From: Halobacteriovoraceae bacterium
Lineage (GTDB): Bacteria > Bdellovibrionota > Bacteriovoracia > Bacteriovoracales > Bacteriovoracaceae
Length of the DNA: 64,000 nt
Direction: 5' to 3'
Assembly: GCA_963719505.1 (NCBI GenBank)
Contig: CAVRCF010000004.1
Span: 96,001 to 160,000 of the forward strand
In this document: positions 46,801-53,093 of the stretch, piece by piece
Layout of the letters: the number at the start of each line of letters is the position of its first letter
Position numbering within the stretch: position 1 is the stretch's first letter
Notes under the pieces: generated by a model
What the model was told of the DNA's origin: nothing
Seen by the model: the letters and a program-made list of their open reading frames with translations, nothing else
The model's database searches: none
Translations under genes and position numbers: made by a program

Positions 46801-47868
46801 ATGAGAGTTTTTCTTTTAGTTGCACTTATGTGCGCAAGTTTTACTGCTTTTGCTGACGAAGAAGCAGCTGGTGTTAGAACCAGTAAATGGGATGGATATA
46901 ATAATCCGTTTAGATTAGACGCAAATTTTGAAGATCGATTTAGTTCAATGCCACTTTCTGGAGACACATCCAAGTCTGGTTTTGGTTGGCCAGCTTATTT
47001 TTGGGCGAATGAAAAAGGTGGAATTGCTCAAAGATGGTCATCAAATGATCCCCAACATTTTAAATATGAATCACCAACTTTATACGCACTCCAGTCCATG
47101 AGCCCAGAGAAAATCAATGAACTCTCACCGGCTGAAAAATTCGATATCATGAATGGAAGATACGATTATCCAACAGTTGAAAAAGTTTGGGGACAGACAA
47201 GTAGAGGAGCGAAAGATTGGCATGGTATCTGTCATGGGGCAGCACCCGCGGGTCTTCACCACAAAGAGCCGTCAGCTAAAACGATTACTAATGCTGATGG
47301 AATTAAAATCACTTTTCACTCAAGTGATGTAAAAGCTCTTACTGCATATTACTACGCTAAGATTTCAGATCTTCCTTCAACTCAGATTGGGCGAAGATGT
47401 TTTATGGGAAGGTTTTCTCCTTTTAGAGGAAAGGGCTGCAAGGACGTCAATCCGGCTTCCCTCCATATCATACTCACAAATAGACTAGGACTTACTAGTA
47501 AAGGCTTTATCGCAGATATTGATAAATTGAAACAAGTTTGGAATCATGTTGCGGTAAAATACGAATCAAAAATTGTAGCGACATTTAAAGATCTTGATAG
47601 ATCTGTGGATGGAACTCATAGAAGAATTCAAGTTGTGACAAATGTTTCTTATACAGGTGGAGTTGATCCTTCTCAATTTGCAGTTCTAGGAACTGAGAAT
47701 GAGAAGTGGGATGTGAGAACCTATGAATACGTTCTTGATCTTGATGTTAATGATAAAATCATCGGTGGTGGTTGGATATCAAGCGAGAGACCTGACTTTA
47801 TATGGGTTAAGGGTAAAGAAACGTTCCTAGATACCTATTACGGTGCAGTTAAATCTCTATTGAAGTAA
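46801..47868 (+). CDS. Secreted transglutaminase-elicitor (GP42-like) family cysteine enzyme
   Basis: Signal peptide; W.AYFW, LSPAEKFD, WHGICHG, DVKAL, DVNPASLH, QVWNH, YEY.L.LD....IIGG.W....PDFIW. Confidence 0.75.
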   Translation: MRVFLLVALMCASFTAFADEEAAGVRTSKWDGYNNPFRLDANFEDRFSSMPLSGDTSKSGFGWPAYFWANEKGGIAQRWSSNDPQHFKYESPTLYALQSMSPEKINELSPAEKFDIMNGRYDYPTVEKVWGQTSRGAKDWHGICHGAAPAGLHHKEPSAKTITNADGIKITFHSSDVKALTAYYYAKISDLPSTQIGRRCFMGRFSPFRGKGCKDVNPASLHIILTNRLGLTSKGFIADIDKLKQVWNHVAVKYESKIVATFKDLDRSVDGTHRRIQVVTNVSYTGGVDPSQFAVLGTENEKWDVRTYEYVLDLDVNDKIIGGGWISSERPDFIWVKGKETFLDTYYGAVKSLLK

Positions 47869-47871
47869 TTT

Positions 47872-47981
47872 AAGCTGGATAAGAGAATAAGAAGTTTTAG
47901 ATAAGTTTTGTGAGATTAATAATATTCATTATTAATCGAAGAGCTTTTGAGGTGGGGTAGAAGAATTCTTCTATCCAGCTT
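47872..47981 (-). ncRNA. Candidate sigma54-dependent structured sRNA, copy 1 (~110 nt)
   Basis: Begins 13 nt downstream of the -12 GC; ~17-bp terminal stem, central bubble, perfect 10-bp hairpin with GAAU loop; paralog at 52138-52248. Confidence 0.65.
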
Positions 47982-47993
47982 ACTCTTTATAAA

Positions 47994-48035
47994 GCAAGGC
48001 TTGTGCCAAGAACTAACAGTTCTAAAGTATTGAAT
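47994..48035 (-). promoter_or_regulatory. Sigma54 promoter plus IHF-like site for sRNA copy 1
   Basis: Minus strand TTGGCACAAGCCTTGC (48009-47994); ATTCAATACTTTA (48035-48023). Confidence 0.72.
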
Positions 48036-48050
48036 TTAAATGTTTATTGA

Positions 48051-48089
48051 GTGGCCAAGTTGATCCAGGATCAATTTGGCCATTTTTTT
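48051..48089 (+). terminator. Long hairpin with T-tract (plus-strand terminator, or palindromic operator)
   Basis: gtggccaagttgatc-cag-gatcaatttggccat followed by tttttt. Confidence 0.55.
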
Positions 48090-48275
48090 GGGGTAAAAAG
48101 TCACTGTGTAATAATTAACGACAAGTGATCTAAAATACTTTGCTGACAACAATTACACTTATAAGCTCGTCCTTTCGACATTTAACAACTGTTGTATCTA
48201 TTAATGGAAGTATTTGTTAGAGCCAAAGAAATGAGTTTAATAAAATAAATATAAAGCACTGAAGGTCACATTACA

Positions 48276-49514
48276 TGCAGTAGTCACGACTTGCGTTTAC
48301 AAAACGCTCTCAGTCAAAATATAAAACTATTGTAAATCTATTTCGCTACTTTCTACCTCGGTGTCAAAAACCATTTCTTTATACAATTTTACTCCTTCTG
48401 AAAATGTTTCATAAGGAGTTCTTCCTTTGCACCTCTTTCCTTGATTTGTTCTGTCGAAGTTGTAATCCTTCATGTAAAAATCAAGATCATACTGCAGTCC
48501 TTCTAGGCTCGTATAAAGCTTCTTTCTAAATGCAACACTATAAAATTCATTTTGGATGATTTGATTTAATTTCTCTACTGATCCATTCGTTTGAGGATGT
48601 CTTACTTTTGTTCGACTATGTTCTATATCATTCAAGTGCATGAATAATTGATAGTGATGCGCATCTTTGTGACCACAATATTCTCGTCCATTGTCTGTCA
48701 AAATCCTAAGAACTGAGATCCTGTGTTCGTCGAAGAATGGAAGTACTTTGCTGTTTAAAAAATCTGCCGCAACAGTTTGAGTTTTATCCAGATAGAGTTT
48801 TGCAAACCCCACATTAGAATAGGTATCAATTCCTGTTTGCTGATAAATTTTTCCAACACCTTTAATGTAGCCAACGTAGTAAGTATCTTGGGCGAATAGA
48901 AATCCAGAGTGATGAGTCTCTACTTCGCCATGAGCTTCTTTCTCTTGCTTTCTCTCTTCGAGTGCTTGGACTTGAGACTCAGTTAAAATATTATTCTCCT
49001 GAGCCGACCATTTCTCTAGACGTTTTAACCTTAGATGTTTTACTTGTAAGTCATGCCTGAGCCAGATTGAGCGAATTCCGCCAGCGCTAATAGCAATATT
49101 GCTTTTTCTTTTAAGCTCATTCGAAACTCGAACTTGTCCATGGGTAGGATACTGTAAAGAATAGTCTAGAACAGCTTTCTCGACTTCTGGAGCGCACCTG
49201 TTTCCAACTCTTGGACCTCTTCTAGACTTTTCTATAAGGCCTTCAAGTCCGTCTTCTTGTATGGCAGTTTTAATATCGTAGTAATGCTGTCGGCTTACAC
49301 CAAGTCTTTTGCATGCTTTTGTAATATTTTTTAAAGTGTCTGCAAATTCAACTATGTTGAGCTTACGATTAATGAGATACTGTTGTTGAGTCATGTGTTT
49401 TCCTTTTGTTAAAAATTGTTTTGTGGTTACTACAATTTTAACTGAGAACGCATGACTCAAATATTACCGGCAATATTTAGTCAGGTGTTGTAAACGCAAT
49501 TCGTGTTACTTCCA
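48276..49514 (-). mobile_element. IS481-family insertion sequence (~1.24 kb)
   Basis: Imperfect TIRs TGCAGTAGTCACGACTTGCGTTTACAA / TGGAAGTAACACGAATTGCGTTTACAA; flanking direct repeat CATTACA (48269-48275, 49515-49521). Confidence 0.85.
48327..49394 (-). CDS. IS481-family DDE transposase
   Basis: NITKACKRLGVSRQHYY (HTH), QDTYYVG, IDTYS, LTDNGREYCG, PQTNGSVEKLN; start likely MTQQQ at 49394. Confidence 0.93.
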   Translation of the reverse strand: MTQQQYLINRKLNIVEFADTLKNITKACKRLGVSRQHYYDIKTAIQEDGLEGLIEKSRRGPRVGNRCAPEVEKAVLDYSLQYPTHGQVRVSNELKRKSNIAISAGGIRSIWLRHDLQVKHLRLKRLEKWSAQENNILTESQVQALEERKQEKEAHGEVETHHSGFLFAQDTYYVGYIKGVGKIYQQTGIDTYSNVGFAKLYLDKTQTVAADFLNSKVLPFFDEHRISVLRILTDNGREYCGHKDAHHYQLFMHLNDIEHSRTKVRHPQTNGSVEKLNQIIQNEFYSVAFRKKLYTSLEGLQYDLDFYMKDYNFDRTNQGKRCKGRTPYETFSEGVKLYKEMVFDTEVESSEIDLQ

Positions 49515-49532
49515 CATTACAGGCTAGGGTGT

Positions 49533-50423
49533 CTAATATAGCTTTGTATCTACTGACGAACCAAAAGTATTTTCATAAACTCTTCTGGATTTAACTAAGT
49601 GTCCAGCTCCGTAAATCACAAGAACTTTATTGTACTTTTTGAGACTTTTATCAATTAATTGAACCAAATATCTTTCTCTAATCATTCCTATATGTGCAGA
49701 AATTTTTTGAAAATAGGTACCCGCACTACCGTTGATCGGAGCTACATCCATTGATCCCAAGTCTAAGTAACTTCGCTTCAAACTGGAATGTAACTCATAC
49801 CATTCCTTGAACTGGTTAAAAGTAACAATATTAGGAGTATTCAAGTTATTTGAGAATCTAGTTAGATATTTTGAGATCTGTGAAATCTGATTAGTTATAT
49901 CTATTTTTTTTTGTTTCTTGAGCTGCGGGATCATCCTTAAAAGATAAAAGCCAACAACATCAATTTCTTGAAAGCCTATCTCGTTGAGACCTTTTAAAAT
50001 CATCGTGTCCTTAATTTCACCACCAGCAAAAGGAATATTCTTTTGATTTGCAATAAATGCTGCGTAAGAAGGCTCTCCACACTTTCTAAACCTTGATGTG
50101 CTACACTTGTTGGCATAATCAATATACCACTGAGGACTAACTTCTTCATTGTTTTGAAAACCTTCTAATATAAGAAAATCAGGTTTTTCCTTTAGTATTA
50201 CCTGTTCAATTGTTTTGAAAGTCTTACTATCCATTGAATTTTCATGATCGGCAGCAACGAAGATTAGTTGTTTATCATTCTTTGAGAAGACAGAAATATA
50301 AGGAGCTTCATATGATTCCTGTTTCTGATAATCTAAACTCCAGTGGCGAATTAGGGATTCATTCAAGCTTATATTTGAGCAACTAATCTTTAGGAATACA
50401 AAGCAAATAAGAATAAACTTCAT
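49533..50423 (-). CDS. Hypothetical lipoprotein, TraB/TIKI/ChaN-like fold
   Basis: Lipobox ISC; ADHE, PDFLILEG, RE..., VLVIYGAGHL metal-site pattern. Confidence 0.55.
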   Translation of the reverse strand: MKFILICFVFLKISCSNISLNESLIRHWSLDYQKQESYEAPYISVFSKNDKQLIFVAADHENSMDSKTFKTIEQVILKEKPDFLILEGFQNNEEVSPQWYIDYANKCSTSRFRKCGEPSYAAFIANQKNIPFAGGEIKDTMILKGLNEIGFQEIDVVGFYLLRMIPQLKKQKKIDITNQISQISKYLTRFSNNLNTPNIVTFNQFKEWYELHSSLKRSYLDLGSMDVAPINGSAGTYFQKISAHIGMIRERYLVQLIDKSLKKYNKVLVIYGAGHLVKSRRVYENTFGSSVDTKLY

Positions 50424-50480
50424 AATTTTGACAATATCATGGTTTGATTAAAATGTTTGTCAAAATCACAATTAGGTGTA

Positions 50481-50590
50481 AATTTAACATTAGCTAAGGA
50501 TAAATAACGTCTTAAGACCCAGCGGTAATTTAAAGGTGGAAAGGATAAATTCTATCTTTAGGTGAACAGTCTTAAGGCTTGAGTTAAATT
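50481..50590 (+). ncRNA. Candidate structured RNA with GGA motifs
   Basis: Three nested helices with G-U pairs favouring the + strand; AAGGAUAAAU occurs twice; terminator-like hairpin follows at 50603-50631. Confidence 0.3.
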
Positions 50591-50596
50591 GCTGAA

Positions 50597-50631
50597 AATA
50601 AAAAAGGCTAGGATTTTTACTCCTGGCCTTT
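50597..50631. terminator. Hairpin terminator downstream of the 50682-50996 gene (possibly bidirectional)
   Basis: aaaggctagga-tttttac-tcctggccttt with an A-run on the left. Confidence 0.6.
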
Positions 50632-50653
50632 GTGATTTCTTTTGATCTTTTAG

Positions 50654-50683
50654 TTTGAGTATCTTATTTTTGAGTATCTTATT
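50654..50683. repeat. Perfect 15-bp tandem duplication
   Basis: TTTGAGTATCTTATT at 50654-50668 and 50669-50683. Confidence 0.9.
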
Positions 50684-50996
50684 AATGACAACGATTACCT
50701 ACAAACTTAGCTTCAGCAACGACCTCGGCGGTTTGTCCTACCTGAACACAAGTCACTTCAAATGATGATTCTTGCTTTGCTCCTTCGTAGTAGAGAAATC
50801 GCCAATTTGCTTTTTGCCTAGCATCTGCTTTAGCTAAAGCTTTCATAGCTTTAAGAACTTCATTTTCGGGGTTACTACAGCTACCTGAAATATTCGAAAA
50901 TTCAACTTTTCCAACAAAGCTCTCTTCAAAGCAGCCAGCGAATGCACTTTGGCCGGCAAGACTTACTAAAATTAAAAGTATCCTCAATTTCTTCAT
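50682..50996 (-). CDS. Small secreted hypothetical protein (4 Cys)
   Basis: RBS aaggaga; signal peptide ending SAFA. Confidence 0.75.
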   Translation of the reverse strand: MKKLRILLILVSLAGQSAFAGCFEESFVGKVEFSNISGSCSNPENEVLKAMKALAKADARQKANWRFLYYEGAKQESSFEVTCVQVGQTAEVVAEAKFVGNRCH

Positions 50997-51172
50997 GCTA
51001 TCTCCTTGCCCTTTAGGCTTTTGTGAAAACGAATTGTTACCTCAACGATTCGTTTTTATCTATAATTATTGGTCTAAATCGTTGATGACCAATCTTCTGA
51101 ACAATATGTACCTATATCGATGTTATATGCATAGTTTACAAATACTTCTACTTGATATAGGTATTTGTTTAT

Positions 51173-51994
51173 ATGATAAGACTAAATGATTTGAATAATT
51201 TTATTGAAGCAAGTGGTTTTCCTAGTTTAAGTATGGCCTCTAAAAAGTTAGGTGTAACTCAACCTGCTCTTTCTGAGTCGATTAAAAGGCTCGAGAAAGA
51301 TTTAGAAACAGTACTCTTTTATCGAACAAAAAATGGAATCTCTCTGACACCTGAAGGGAAGAAAGCTCTTGAGAAAAGTAAAAGCATCAGAATAATGCTA
51401 AACGATCTTGGAGAGATGAGGAGTGATCAAAAACAACCACTACTCACTTTGGGGTGTCATCCTGCTATTGGTTCTTACTTCCTTCCATATTTTATAAAGC
51501 GAGTTAATCACACCATCCCTGAAGGGAGATTCAAAATTACTCACGATCTTTCTAGAAATATTCAACTACAAGTTCAGTCGGGGGAAATTGACTTTGGTAT
51601 TATAGTCAATCCTTCTCCAAATCCGGATCTCATTCTCAAGCATATAGGGGTAGATATGGTGCGAGTTTGGAAATCAAAAAAGAAAGGGGATGACAACAAA
51701 ATCATTGCTGACTTAGACCTTCTACAAACTCAAAATATTTTGAACAAATGGAAGCGTGCTCCTAAAGAGTTAATGTCTATGTCAAGCCTTGAGATTATCG
51801 CGAGAATGACCAATCAAGGTTGTGGGTATGGGATTATACCAGAGAGAACGGTCAAACTTTTAAACTTTGATTTAGAAATAGTTAAAGGGAGTCCTTGTTT
51901 TAAAGATGAGTTTTACCTCGTTTATAGACCTGAATTCGGAAAGACTAGATATGAGAAAGATGTGATCAAGCTGATTGTTGAATCTTTTTCTTGA
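51173..51994 (+). CDS. LysR family transcriptional regulator
   Basis: SLSMASKKLGVTQPALSESIKRLEKDL..LFYR...LTPEG. Confidence 0.93.
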   Translation: MIRLNDLNNFIEASGFPSLSMASKKLGVTQPALSESIKRLEKDLETVLFYRTKNGISLTPEGKKALEKSKSIRIMLNDLGEMRSDQKQPLLTLGCHPAIGSYFLPYFIKRVNHTIPEGRFKITHDLSRNIQLQVQSGEIDFGIIVNPSPNPDLILKHIGVDMVRVWKSKKKGDDNKIIADLDLLQTQNILNKWKRAPKELMSMSSLEIIARMTNQGCGYGIIPERTVKLLNFDLEIVKGSPCFKDEFYLVYRPEFGKTRYEKDVIKLIVESFS

Positions 51995-52137
51995 TATAAA
52001 GAGACGAGGTTTTTGAAAAGAACAAAGGTCCTGATCAAAAAAATTAATAAGCAAAATGTCCAATTTGATTATATCTCAGAATTTTTTTTGAATACTATAG
52101 ATGAACAGAGAATCTTTTTTTCTTAGAAAAAAAGTTC

Positions 52138-52248
52138 AAGCTGGATAAGAAGAATGAGAATTTATAGGTTAGTTTTGTGAGATTTGAAACATTCGTGACA
52201 AATCGAAGAGCTTTTGAGGTGGGGCAGAAGAATCCTTCCATCCAGCTT
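52138..52248 (-). ncRNA. Candidate sigma54-dependent structured sRNA, copy 2 (~111 nt)
   Basis: About 85% identical to copy 1 (hand alignment); same fold with compensatory changes; begins 13 nt downstream of the -12 GC. Confidence 0.65.
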
Positions 52249-52260
52249 ACTATATATGAA

Positions 52261-52302
52261 GCAAGCTTCGTGCCAAGGTGTTTGATGTCTAAGTGATTAA
52301 TT
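52261..52302 (-). promoter_or_regulatory. Sigma54 promoter plus IHF-like site for sRNA copy 2
   Basis: Minus strand TTGGCACGAAGCTTGC (52276-52261), a perfect consensus match; AATTAATCACTTA (52302-52290) at the same spacing as in copy 1. Confidence 0.78.
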
Positions 52303-52397
52303 TTATTATGTGAATTTGGTGTCACTAAAGCATCGTGCCCCTAAACTCCGACTTTTTGACTCCAATTTAAGTCTCAATTTGCCTGACTTCGACTTTT

Positions 52398-53093
52398 CTA
52401 AGGTAAATCTGTGTAGTCTTCCAAGACCGAAAACTTCGAACTAACGACTCTTAAAGCACCTTCAGTATTTTCAAAATGTGGTAATTCTAAAGCGTATTTT
52501 GCACAGTACTCACGGTAGTAGATACTTTTTTGGGGGTGACGAGGATTGCTTAAGTTTATTAAGCGTGGAGTTTCAAGTTGGTAAATCAGTTTAACAGCTT
52601 TGGCGACGTCAATTCGAGCAATAAGATTCAAAGGGTCATTACCATTTTTGAGACCCTTTTTACCAGCAAGATACATTCCGGGGTGTGAACCCTCTGAGTA
52701 AAGGCCACTAGGTCTAATAATAAATGAATGGTCAAAATCAGCTAATAGTTTTTCAATCTTAAAAAGCTTATGACCATTTTCAGTATTTGGTTGAGGTGTC
52801 TTATCTTCGGTGACGACACCTTCATTCTCTCCATAAATTCCCGTTGAGCTTATGAGAATAACTTTCTTATCCTTTACTTCATTTAACCTTTGAATCCAAA
52901 CGTCAGTTGAAAGAGCACTTGGTGGGATACAAAAAATATAGGTATCAAACTTTAAACCAACTAGTGAATCCACATTAAGGTCTAGCTTGATAGAGCCACT
53001 GTGTGGTGTTGTTTTTGAACCAGTAATATCACCTTCAGGAAATTGGTCAATAATAAGTTTTCCAAGCCTTCCGGCTCCAATGACAAGGATCAT
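52398..53093 (-). CDS. YeeZ-like atypical SDR / NAD-dependent epimerase
   Basis: IGAGRLG, ISSTGIYG, IRPSGLY, LNLIAR.D. Confidence 0.8.
   Translation of the reverse strand: MILVIGAGRLGKLIIDQFPEGDITGSKTTPHSGSIKLDLNVDSLVGLKFDTYIFCIPPSALSTDVWIQRLNEVKDKKVILISSTGIYGENEGVVTEDKTPQPNTENGHKLFKIEKLLADFDHSFIIRPSGLYSEGSHPGMYLAGKKGLKNGNDPLNLIARIDVAKAVKLIYQLETPRLINLSNPRHPQKSIYYREYCAKYALELPHFENTEGALRVVSSKFSVLEDYTDLP

Follow-up and report, generated by a model that had tools for sequence, protein, structure and literature searches.

What are the two similar intergenic elements that lie ~4.3 kb apart on the minus strand of a 64,000-nt stretch of a Halobacteriovoraceae bacterium genome (contig CAVRCF010000004.1, positions 96,001 to 160,000; the whole stretch is called the window here and is numbered from its first letter)? 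An earlier, model-made note on this DNA (the original prediction) took them for copies of an undescribed, structured noncoding RNA that is driven by sigma-54 promoters, and described them as ~110-nt minus-strand elements with ~17 differences over 111 positions. Coordinates and global alignment agree with this description: copy A occupies 47872..47981 (minus strand, 110 nt) and copy B 52138..52248 (minus strand, 111 nt), and their minus strands differ in 17 of 111 alignment columns. We consider it very probable that these elements are real, conserved, structured RNA genes with a sigma-54 promoter. Judging from the sequences, they would constitute a previously uncatalogued small RNA (sRNA) gene family that, among the genomes searched, is confined to part of the Bacteriovoracaceae. 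As to the function of the RNA, our preferred reading, to which we give a probability of roughly 0.55, is that of a riboregulator that stands alone, depends on an enhancer, works without Hfq, and pairs with G-rich sites in mRNAs.

Two diverged copies and their relatives

The duplication extends beyond the RNA itself. A repeat finder delimited the duplicated unit to ~170 nt (47869-48038 and 52135-52305, at a spacing of 4267 nt), which means that the core promoter is included along with the RNA. Copies A and B are in all likelihood diverged paralogues, each with its own promoter. A BLAST search of the window's own genome (G000) recovered these two copies only, and BLAST against other genomes gave a single true homologue, in a genome of the same genus (G002). 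Two further BLAST matches (L022 and L023) lie inside coding sequence, possess neither the stem nor the box, and were dismissed as chance.

Relatives were sought with two covariance models, R1, built from three sequences (copies A and B and the G002 homologue), and R2, built from 25 sequences. The sample comprised 151 Bacteriovoracaceae genomes (69 genera) and 127 genomes from 24 other families of the phylum; the searches scored the best 25 first-look candidates per genome, and weak members may be missed. Copy A scores 133 bits with R1 and 114 bits with R2, and copy B scores 125 and 103.6 bits, respectively. R1 yielded ~25 full-length matches in the 151 same-family genomes, along with six weak ones (E above 0.001) that lack the box, apparently represent coding sequence, and were discarded as false positives. 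With R2, 36 matches were obtained in 27 of the 151 genomes, representing 10 of the 69 genera, with one to three copies per genome. Some genera were positive throughout (3/3, 7/7) and others in part (2/6, 4/6), while no R2 match with E up to 0.01 was found across the 127 genomes from the other families. A third, diverged copy was located by covariance model in the window's own genome, outside the window (G000:C1:990103-990209, minus strand). Thirty-four members were extracted for the member-wise counts of promoter, fold, and composition reported below.

A pattern scan of public genomes identified as carriers metagenome-assembled genomes (MAGs) labeled as Bacteriovoracaceae or as “uncultured Oligoflexia”; a pattern match in a “Methylococcaceae” MAG (L056) fails the covariance model and was treated as chance. 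When the whole window was scanned against Rfam 15 with cmscan, no match reached the gathering score, and with E up to 10 the region 47500-52700 gave six weak, unrelated matches, none of them on either element. Searches of the literature on Bdellovibrio-like organisms turned up no description of this RNA. The Rfam scan and the covariance-model search of related genomes had been proposed as checks in the original prediction, and both came out on the side of an undescribed structured sigma-54 RNA family: nothing in Rfam corresponds to it, and the 36 matches in 27 of 151 genomes include homologues with the box and with covariation.

Promoter, fold, and strand

The best support comes from the promoter. 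Copy A is preceded by a −24/−12 box that reads TGGCAC-AAGCC-TTGCT (47993..48008, minus strand; TGGCAC at 48008-48003 and TTGC at 47997-47994), and copy B by one that reads TGGCAC-GAAGC-TTGCT (52260..52275, minus strand; TGGCAC at 52275-52270 and TTGC at 52264-52261). In copies A and B alike, the RNA begins with the 13th base downstream of the GC in the −12 element (TGGCAC-N5-TTGC). An AT-rich, IHF-like motif is found on the minus strand at 48023..48035 in copy A and, at identical offset, at 52289..52303 in copy B. Both copies thus have the layout that was predicted at the outset, with the box 13 nt before the RNA start and the IHF-like motif at equal distance. In a box-anchored alignment the AT-rich motif takes the family consensus aTTTCAAnnnnTTA, which lies at about −30 to −17 from TGGC and which we take to resemble the IHF consensus.

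The box is a property of the family as a whole. A TGGC[AG][CT]-N6-TG[CT] box is present in 34 of 34 members, and it also occurs in all nine R2 matches that were not used for building R2. Its position is nearly constant, the T of TGGC lying 26 to 28 nt before the model start in 31 of the 34 members; two of the remaining three have 30 to 40 extra nt that lengthen the outer helix, and the last has the box at 31 nt. The window's own genome contains no more than 44 such boxes in 3.69 Mb, and 22 of those outside the RNA genes have a called gene start no farther than 150 nt away; the genome also encodes sigma-54 (rpoN) and 10 to 11 enhancer-binding proteins. An extended consensus, TTGCT-yATATA, is common to the promoters of the RNA genes and to other boxes of this genome, and because of this shared extension the RNA promoters look like ordinary sigma-54 promoters of the organism. 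In the sigma-54 promoters of this genome at large, the TTGCT that follows from the −12 element is succeeded by yATATA and then by a GGGTA-like stretch, and many of these promoters lie 20 to 60 nt before a start codon.

A sigma-54 promoter requires an AAA+ enhancer-binding protein, and candidate sites for such a protein are found farther upstream. The members share a palindromic motif, GGnCA-W3-TGnCC, 60 to 100 nt upstream, as found with a sampler that was forced to one site per sequence. Gibbs sampling placed the palindrome aGGGnCAaatTGnCCCt mostly 60 to 77 nt upstream of TGGC, with about half of the members at −72 to −77. Copy A possesses two abutting palindromic sites, ATGGCCAAATTGATCCT and TGGATCAACTTGGCCAC (48051..48083, minus strand), which are candidate enhancer-binding-protein sites; their position weight matrix (PWM) scores are 15.4 and 10.8, the 99th percentile of random 100-nt windows being 9.2. 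Copy B has one candidate activator site upstream, AGGGGCACGATGCTTTA (52326..52342, minus strand), which has a PWM score of 10.1 and is weaker than those of copy A.

Similar sites were noticed at other sigma-54 boxes of the genome. A box at G000:C1:1223416 (plus strand, L073) has three upstream sites resembling those of the RNA genes and is followed by a ~190-nt leader rich in AAGGA/GGA and then by a gene, possibly co-regulated with the RNA family, for a DksA/TraR-type zinc-finger protein (169 aa). High upstream-site scores were also obtained for box C3:137661, which precedes a lipoprotein gene with DGxDG repeats, and for box C5:870964, which precedes an outer-membrane-like gene with a metalloprotease gene behind it.

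The RNA is predicted to fold back on itself over its entire length. In copies A and B, the ends pair via 10 perfect pairs, or ~17 when G-U pairs and one mismatch are counted, in keeping with the terminal pairing of ~17 bp that had been read by hand. Besides this terminal stem (P1), copy A comprises a small 5′ hairpin or P1 extension, a C-rich loop, a hairpin (P3) with a GAAU loop, and a pyrimidine-rich 3′ arm. The three double compensatory changes that had been reported around the GAAU loop of P3 are indeed present between the two copies, but P3 of copy B has, in addition, two non-pairing positions that had gone unmentioned. The predicted fold is that of a “panhandle,” after which we refer to the panhandle RNA: a terminal helix of ~10 to 17 bp would join the ends, and the large loop that it closes would hold one GAAU-type hairpin.

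Comparison of the family members supports this fold. In a model-fitted alignment of 25 sequences, 91.1% of the cells pair and two-sided changes are seen in 24 of 24 pairs; its pairing score was reached by none of 500 shuffles, and slid-partner controls gave 33 to 49%. Since a model-fitted alignment leans to its model, a plain MAFFT alignment of the 34 members was also made. From the MAFFT-only alignment RNAalifold recovered P1 and P3, and 17 of the 19 pairs show compensatory changes. When sequences were folded singly, P1 had a median of 15 bp (at least 13 bp in 25/34 members) and P3 a median of 9 bp. A GGAAGGA-like, purine-rich 5′ stretch could adopt any of three pairings: with the pyrimidine-rich 3′ arm (which extends P1), within a small local hairpin, or with a UCC that immediately precedes P3. 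We also considered a kissing interaction between the GAAU loop and the AUUC of the 5′ hairpin, which fits copies A and B but not the other members inspected by eye, and rejected it.

The minus-strand orientation that had been proposed for copies A and B is upheld by several measures. Shuffle z-scores are −5.0 (copy A) and −3.2 (copy B) for the minus strand, compared with −3.5 and −1.45 for the plus strand, and among the 34 members the forward strand comes out ahead by z-score in 32. G-U cells outnumber A-C cells in the alignment by 44 to 19. As also predicted, no reading frame is conserved: the indels do not keep to multiples of three, and the sole ATGs fall in a variable hairpin. A small open reading frame (ORF) was rejected on the latter ground, its ATGs being confined to that hairpin and not conserved. 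With covarying pairs and no conserved frame, the element is in all probability a structured noncoding RNA.

The large loops between the helices contain little G. The RNAs as a whole are G-poor (8 to 19% G), and 30 of the 34 members contain at least one CCYAYC motif, 14 of them having two or three copies. These C-rich motifs are largely unpaired in the folds. UCYCA directly follows P3 in most members, and CA-rich runs are seen in many; in a GC-richer genus the C-rich motif is located 3′ of P3, not 5′. The hairpin loop of P3 provides the only invariant column (A57) together with a nearly invariant A56, and its stem covaries. A 24-nt stretch, CCCCACCTCAAAAGCTCTTCGATT, had been singled out as invariant. 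It is identical in the two window copies but is not conserved in G002 of the same genus; the features that persist in the loops family-wide are a CCYACC-like motif (30/34), the GAAU-type loop, and UCYCA.

By its shape alone, in which a long terminal helix closes off a large internal loop, the RNA might be taken for a 6S-like mimic of a promoter that binds the RNA polymerase holoenzyme, an alternative that the original prediction had raised. However, no Rfam 6S model matches, and 6S RNAs are much longer than 110 nt. The bubble of the panhandle RNA is, moreover, asymmetric and contains a hairpin, and its loops bear no resemblance to the promoter's own sequence. We regard polymerase mimicry as extremely improbable.

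Neighboring genes and other sigma-54-linked candidates

Copies A and B have no same-strand gene downstream. A TGase_elicitor-domain gene (46801..47868, plus strand) converges on copy A and ends 4 nt from its 3′ end, and a LysR-type regulator gene (51173..51994, plus strand) is convergent with copy B and lies downstream of it. As both copies face convergent genes, neither can be a leader. The 4.27-kb insert between the copies contains an insertion sequence (IS), two ORFs without Pfam match (296 and 104 aa), and the LysR gene. The IS (48285..49505, minus strand; ~1.2 kb) is bounded by 21-nt inverted repeats (48285-48305 and 49485-49505) that are 90% complementary, and its transposase ORF (48327-49460) encodes 377 aa with HTH and rve domains; it lies outside the RNA gene, ~200 nt upstream of the activator sites of copy A (48083-48051). 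The single copy of G002 sits between the same flanks, YqeY and a TGase_elicitor-domain gene, so that in the genome of the window a second copy and 4.27 kb lie inside an otherwise syntenic locus. Two small features were also noted in this part of the window: a 15-nt unit, TTTGAGTATCTTATT, that is repeated perfectly in tandem (50654-50683) in the intergenic region upstream of the 104-aa ORF, and a terminator-like hairpin on the plus strand (50603-50631).

This arrangement raises the question of whether the copies are mobile repeats, either miniature inverted-repeat transposable elements (MITEs) or similar to repetitive extragenic palindromic (REP) sequences, whose terminal inverted repeat has been mistaken for an RNA stem. 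The 18-nt terminal inverted repeats and the IS between the two copies would fit such an origin, which the original prediction had itself named as a possibility to be checked. Yet there are only one to three copies per genome, and the arms vary among members and stay complementary, with G-U pairs that are valid on one strand only. The promoter, the IHF-like motif, and the upstream site are conserved outside the arms, the immediate flanks of copies A and B differ and show no target-site duplication, and the inverted repeats of the IS are its own and unrelated. The copy number, the covarying terminal stem, and the promoter outside the arms leave a mobile repeat with next to no probability in our estimate.

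A different setting is found elsewhere in the family. In at least 12 of the 34 loci, that of the genome's own third copy included, the RNA gene lies between an ECF sigma/anti-sigma pair and a same-strand lipoprotein gene, which has a HEWTHKxGxxH (metzincin-type) motif and starts 95 to 220 nt after the RNA. Several GC-richer members have a different secreted-protein gene ~100 nt downstream. One could therefore regard the RNA as a cis-acting 5′ leader of the same-strand gene, ancestrally that of the metzincin-like lipoprotein, and the stand-alone copies as remnants. The lipoprotein gene downstream and the ECF sigma/anti-sigma genes upstream in these loci, the secreted-protein genes of the GC-richer members, and the lack of a clear terminator in most copies are all in favor of a leader. 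On the other hand, several copies, A and B among them, are faced by a convergent gene or followed by a canonical terminator (one is present 15 to 45 nt after P1 in three members), the downstream genes vary by locus, and the sequence and structure of the RNA are kept regardless of the neighbor. The space between the RNA and the lipoprotein gene also holds two conserved blocks with a fixed 15-nt spacing (GCCCTTTAG ... CCGATA). These blocks look like the lipoprotein gene's own promoter, which the adjacent ECF sigma factor may recognize. Taken as an account of the family, a leader is improbable. In related loci (for example L027, L050, L041, L029, and L048), a conserved C-run, UUCUUCCCCCCCAYC, precedes the two blocks.

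Other sigma-54 boxes of the genome are followed by what may be further RNAs. A second sigma-54-promoted small RNA candidate of ~95 nt (G000:C1:1271739-1271870, plus strand; L086/L088) comprises a 5′ end with a GU-repeat and GGGG, a hairpin with GGA in its loop, a stretch rich in pyrimidines, and, last, a canonical terminator; it contains no ORF and matches nothing in Rfam. BLAST found this candidate together with its box in 12 of 41 genomes. Eleven of these are among the 24 family genomes searched, and they include genera without the panhandle RNA. Pairing of the panhandle family with the GU-rich 5′ end of this candidate was rejected as a general rule, as two of nine same-genome pairs beat their shuffles (G001, 1/200; G003, 4/200). 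A third box (G000:C1:774633 to ~774470, minus strand; L085) is followed by a ~135-nt stretch that has no ORF and ends in a canonical terminator. In it, CCACACCUU directly precedes a hairpin with a GAAU-containing loop, a module as in the panhandle RNA; by BLAST, the stretch is present in its own genome only (1/41).

Proposed mode of action and comparison with known systems

How might the panhandle RNA act? We propose that an enhancer-binding protein sits on the one to three palindromes (GGnCA-W3-TGnCC) ~60 to 100 nt upstream of −24, with the IHF-like bend site between, and that the RNA would be produced only once some signal activates this protein. The sigma-54 promoter would then give rise to a ~110-nt noncoding RNA, in which the hairpin would be flanked on both sides by G-poor, C/A/U-rich single strands that contain CCYACC one to three times, along with a UCYCA motif. 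The exposed C-rich stretches could pair in trans with AGGURGG- or GGGAGA-like stretches of mRNAs, ribosome-binding regions included. Such pairing would proceed without Hfq, like that of the C-rich-seed sRNAs of Hfq-independent systems. We favor a base-pairing regulator because the loops are nearly G-free, the motifs are repeated, and the carriers seem to be without Hfq; a search for the Hfq family PF17209 gave no match in six carrier genomes (the window's own genome, 83.5% complete, and five others, 97 to 99% complete). That the RNA is stand-alone and trans-acting is probable, while base pairing through the C-rich loops has, in our view, slightly less than an even chance.

A number of observations weigh against this proposal. 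The transcript and its 5′ and 3′ ends are themselves deduced from the DNA, and most copies, A and B included, have no canonical intrinsic terminator after P1, which leaves the 3′ end uncertain. Where a same-strand gene begins 95 to 220 nt downstream, as in the 12 or more loci described above, the RNA may serve as a leader. In the six genomes checked, the contig with the RNA has no Sigma54_activat gene up to 100 kb from it, the nearest being at 135 kb. None of the enhancer-binding proteins was assigned at an equivalog cut-off and their domain architectures are generic, so that the activator is not nameable from family models. Setting the enhancer-binding proteins of carriers against those of non-carriers within one genus suggested G000:C5:1044415-1045767 as a candidate activator, which was rejected: orthologues with >50% identity occur in seven genomes, two of which are non-carriers, the best match in its own genus has 34 to 36% identity, and its distribution is unlike that of the RNA.

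The search for targets likewise gave little encouragement. In a scan of the window's own genome (3547 crudely called ORFs; duplex threshold of −14 kcal/mol or lower), the C-rich loop of copy A reached the threshold in 457 start-site and 421 intragenic windows. The original prediction had suggested pairing with ribosome-binding sites, and this suggestion is not borne out by the scan, in which the C-rich loop is not enriched at start sites; the 3′ pyrimidine-rich loop showed a modest start-site excess (183 versus 105). Nor is pairing with the start region of the neighboring lipoprotein gene cognate-specific, the mean duplex energies being −15.7 kcal/mol for cognate, −17.3 kcal/mol for non-cognate, and −16.4 kcal/mol for shuffled combinations. 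Finally, the best-conserved loop feature is the GAAU loop, which would be at least as fitting for a protein-binding role as for base pairing.

A protein-binding role centered on the GAAU loop is the main rival to base pairing; a protein sponge had also been raised in the original prediction. The hairpin and the C-rich motifs would bind a protein, which the sigma-54-controlled RNA would titrate as a sponge or decoy or for which it would act as a scaffold. Such a role could account for the invariant A57 and nearly invariant A56 above a covarying stem, for the C-rich motif being present two or three times in 14/34 members, and for a target scan without a clear mRNA signal; the genome also encodes CsrA (G000:C1:257718-257873). 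However, the RNA is G-poor and has one conserved GGA-containing stretch only, which makes it unlike a CsrA sponge. No gene for a candidate partner protein is linked to the family, and one to three motifs are few for a sponge. Overall, we think protein binding unlikely and retain the base-pairing riboregulator as the preferred reading.

A more far-reaching scheme builds on base pairing and on the ECF-linked loci. The panhandle family would belong to a wider network of sigma-54-driven RNAs in Hfq-less predators, the genome having at least one further conserved small RNA with a sigma-54 promoter, and the panhandle RNA would be a signal-gated switch for the production of secreted and surface hydrolases. 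Anti-Shine-Dalgarno-like C-rich loops would be carried by a nuclease-proof, closed-end scaffold that needs neither terminator nor chaperone, and the ancestral location of the RNA would be between the ECF sigma/anti-sigma pair and the gene of the secreted metzincin-like lipoprotein. We rate this scheme as distinctly unlikely; if true, it would provide a new bacterial riboregulator architecture and the first RNA regulator of predation.

Bdellovibrio-like predators are studied as “living antibiotics,” and to our knowledge their post-transcriptional control is almost unexplored. A signal-gated RNA with a clean promoter, a covarying fold, and one to three paralogues would offer a defined handle on this level of control. 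A closed-end panhandle lacking an obvious terminator would also be an unusual design, and the present alignments could serve for an Rfam submission.

Among known systems, Pxr appears to be the closest in kind, with Qrr as the next-named analogue; by the tests that were run, none of the known systems is homologous to the panhandle RNA. Pxr of Myxococcus and other Cystobacterineae is a ~100-nt, lineage-restricted RNA with a sigma-54 promoter and three stem-loops, is single-copy in most species, and always adjoins the enhancer-binding-protein gene nla19; some species have tandem paralogues that are 14 to 23% diverged and have a sigma-54 promoter each (PMC5568312). Like these, the window copies are 15% diverged and have a promoter each. 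Unlike Pxr, the panhandle RNA has no enhancer-binding-protein gene nearby in the six genomes checked, its ends are closed in one long helix rather than folded into three stem-loops, and it belongs to a different phylum. The two are set apart here by description, location, and the Rfam scan.

Qrr RNAs act by base pairing, depend on Hfq, and end in a terminator hairpin. In the panhandle carriers, by contrast, Hfq was not found in six of six genomes, and the 3′ end of the RNA is an arm of a long-range helix; the Rfam scan revealed no similarity to Qrr in sequence or model. The Qrr RNAs of Vibrio are described as multi-copy, ~100-nt sRNAs with sigma-54 promoters and with an enhancer-binding protein at inverted-repeat sites (PMC10162802), and the paper on Pxr likewise mentions them as multi-copy (PMC5568312).

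The loops of the panhandle RNA invite a further comparison. RsaE/RoxS-type sRNAs are G-poor, do not require Hfq, and target G-rich stretches at ribosome-binding sites. The panhandle RNA resembles them in being G-poor, in having unpaired C-rich motifs, and in belonging to carriers that seem to be without Hfq, and it differs from them in sequence, in fold (no Rfam match), in promoter type, and in taxon. For these Firmicutes sRNAs, C-rich motifs in unpaired regions are reported (PMC2790875, PMC6158497). GlmY/GlmZ and a flagellar sRNA of Campylobacter are further sRNAs for which sigma-54 promoters are described (PMC3045617, PMC11187230), and the panhandle RNA differs from these in sequence, fold, genomic context, and taxon. 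The panhandle family would thus stand beside Pxr and Qrr as an independent example of sigma-54 promoters serving paralogous sRNAs, in a host that is seemingly without Hfq.

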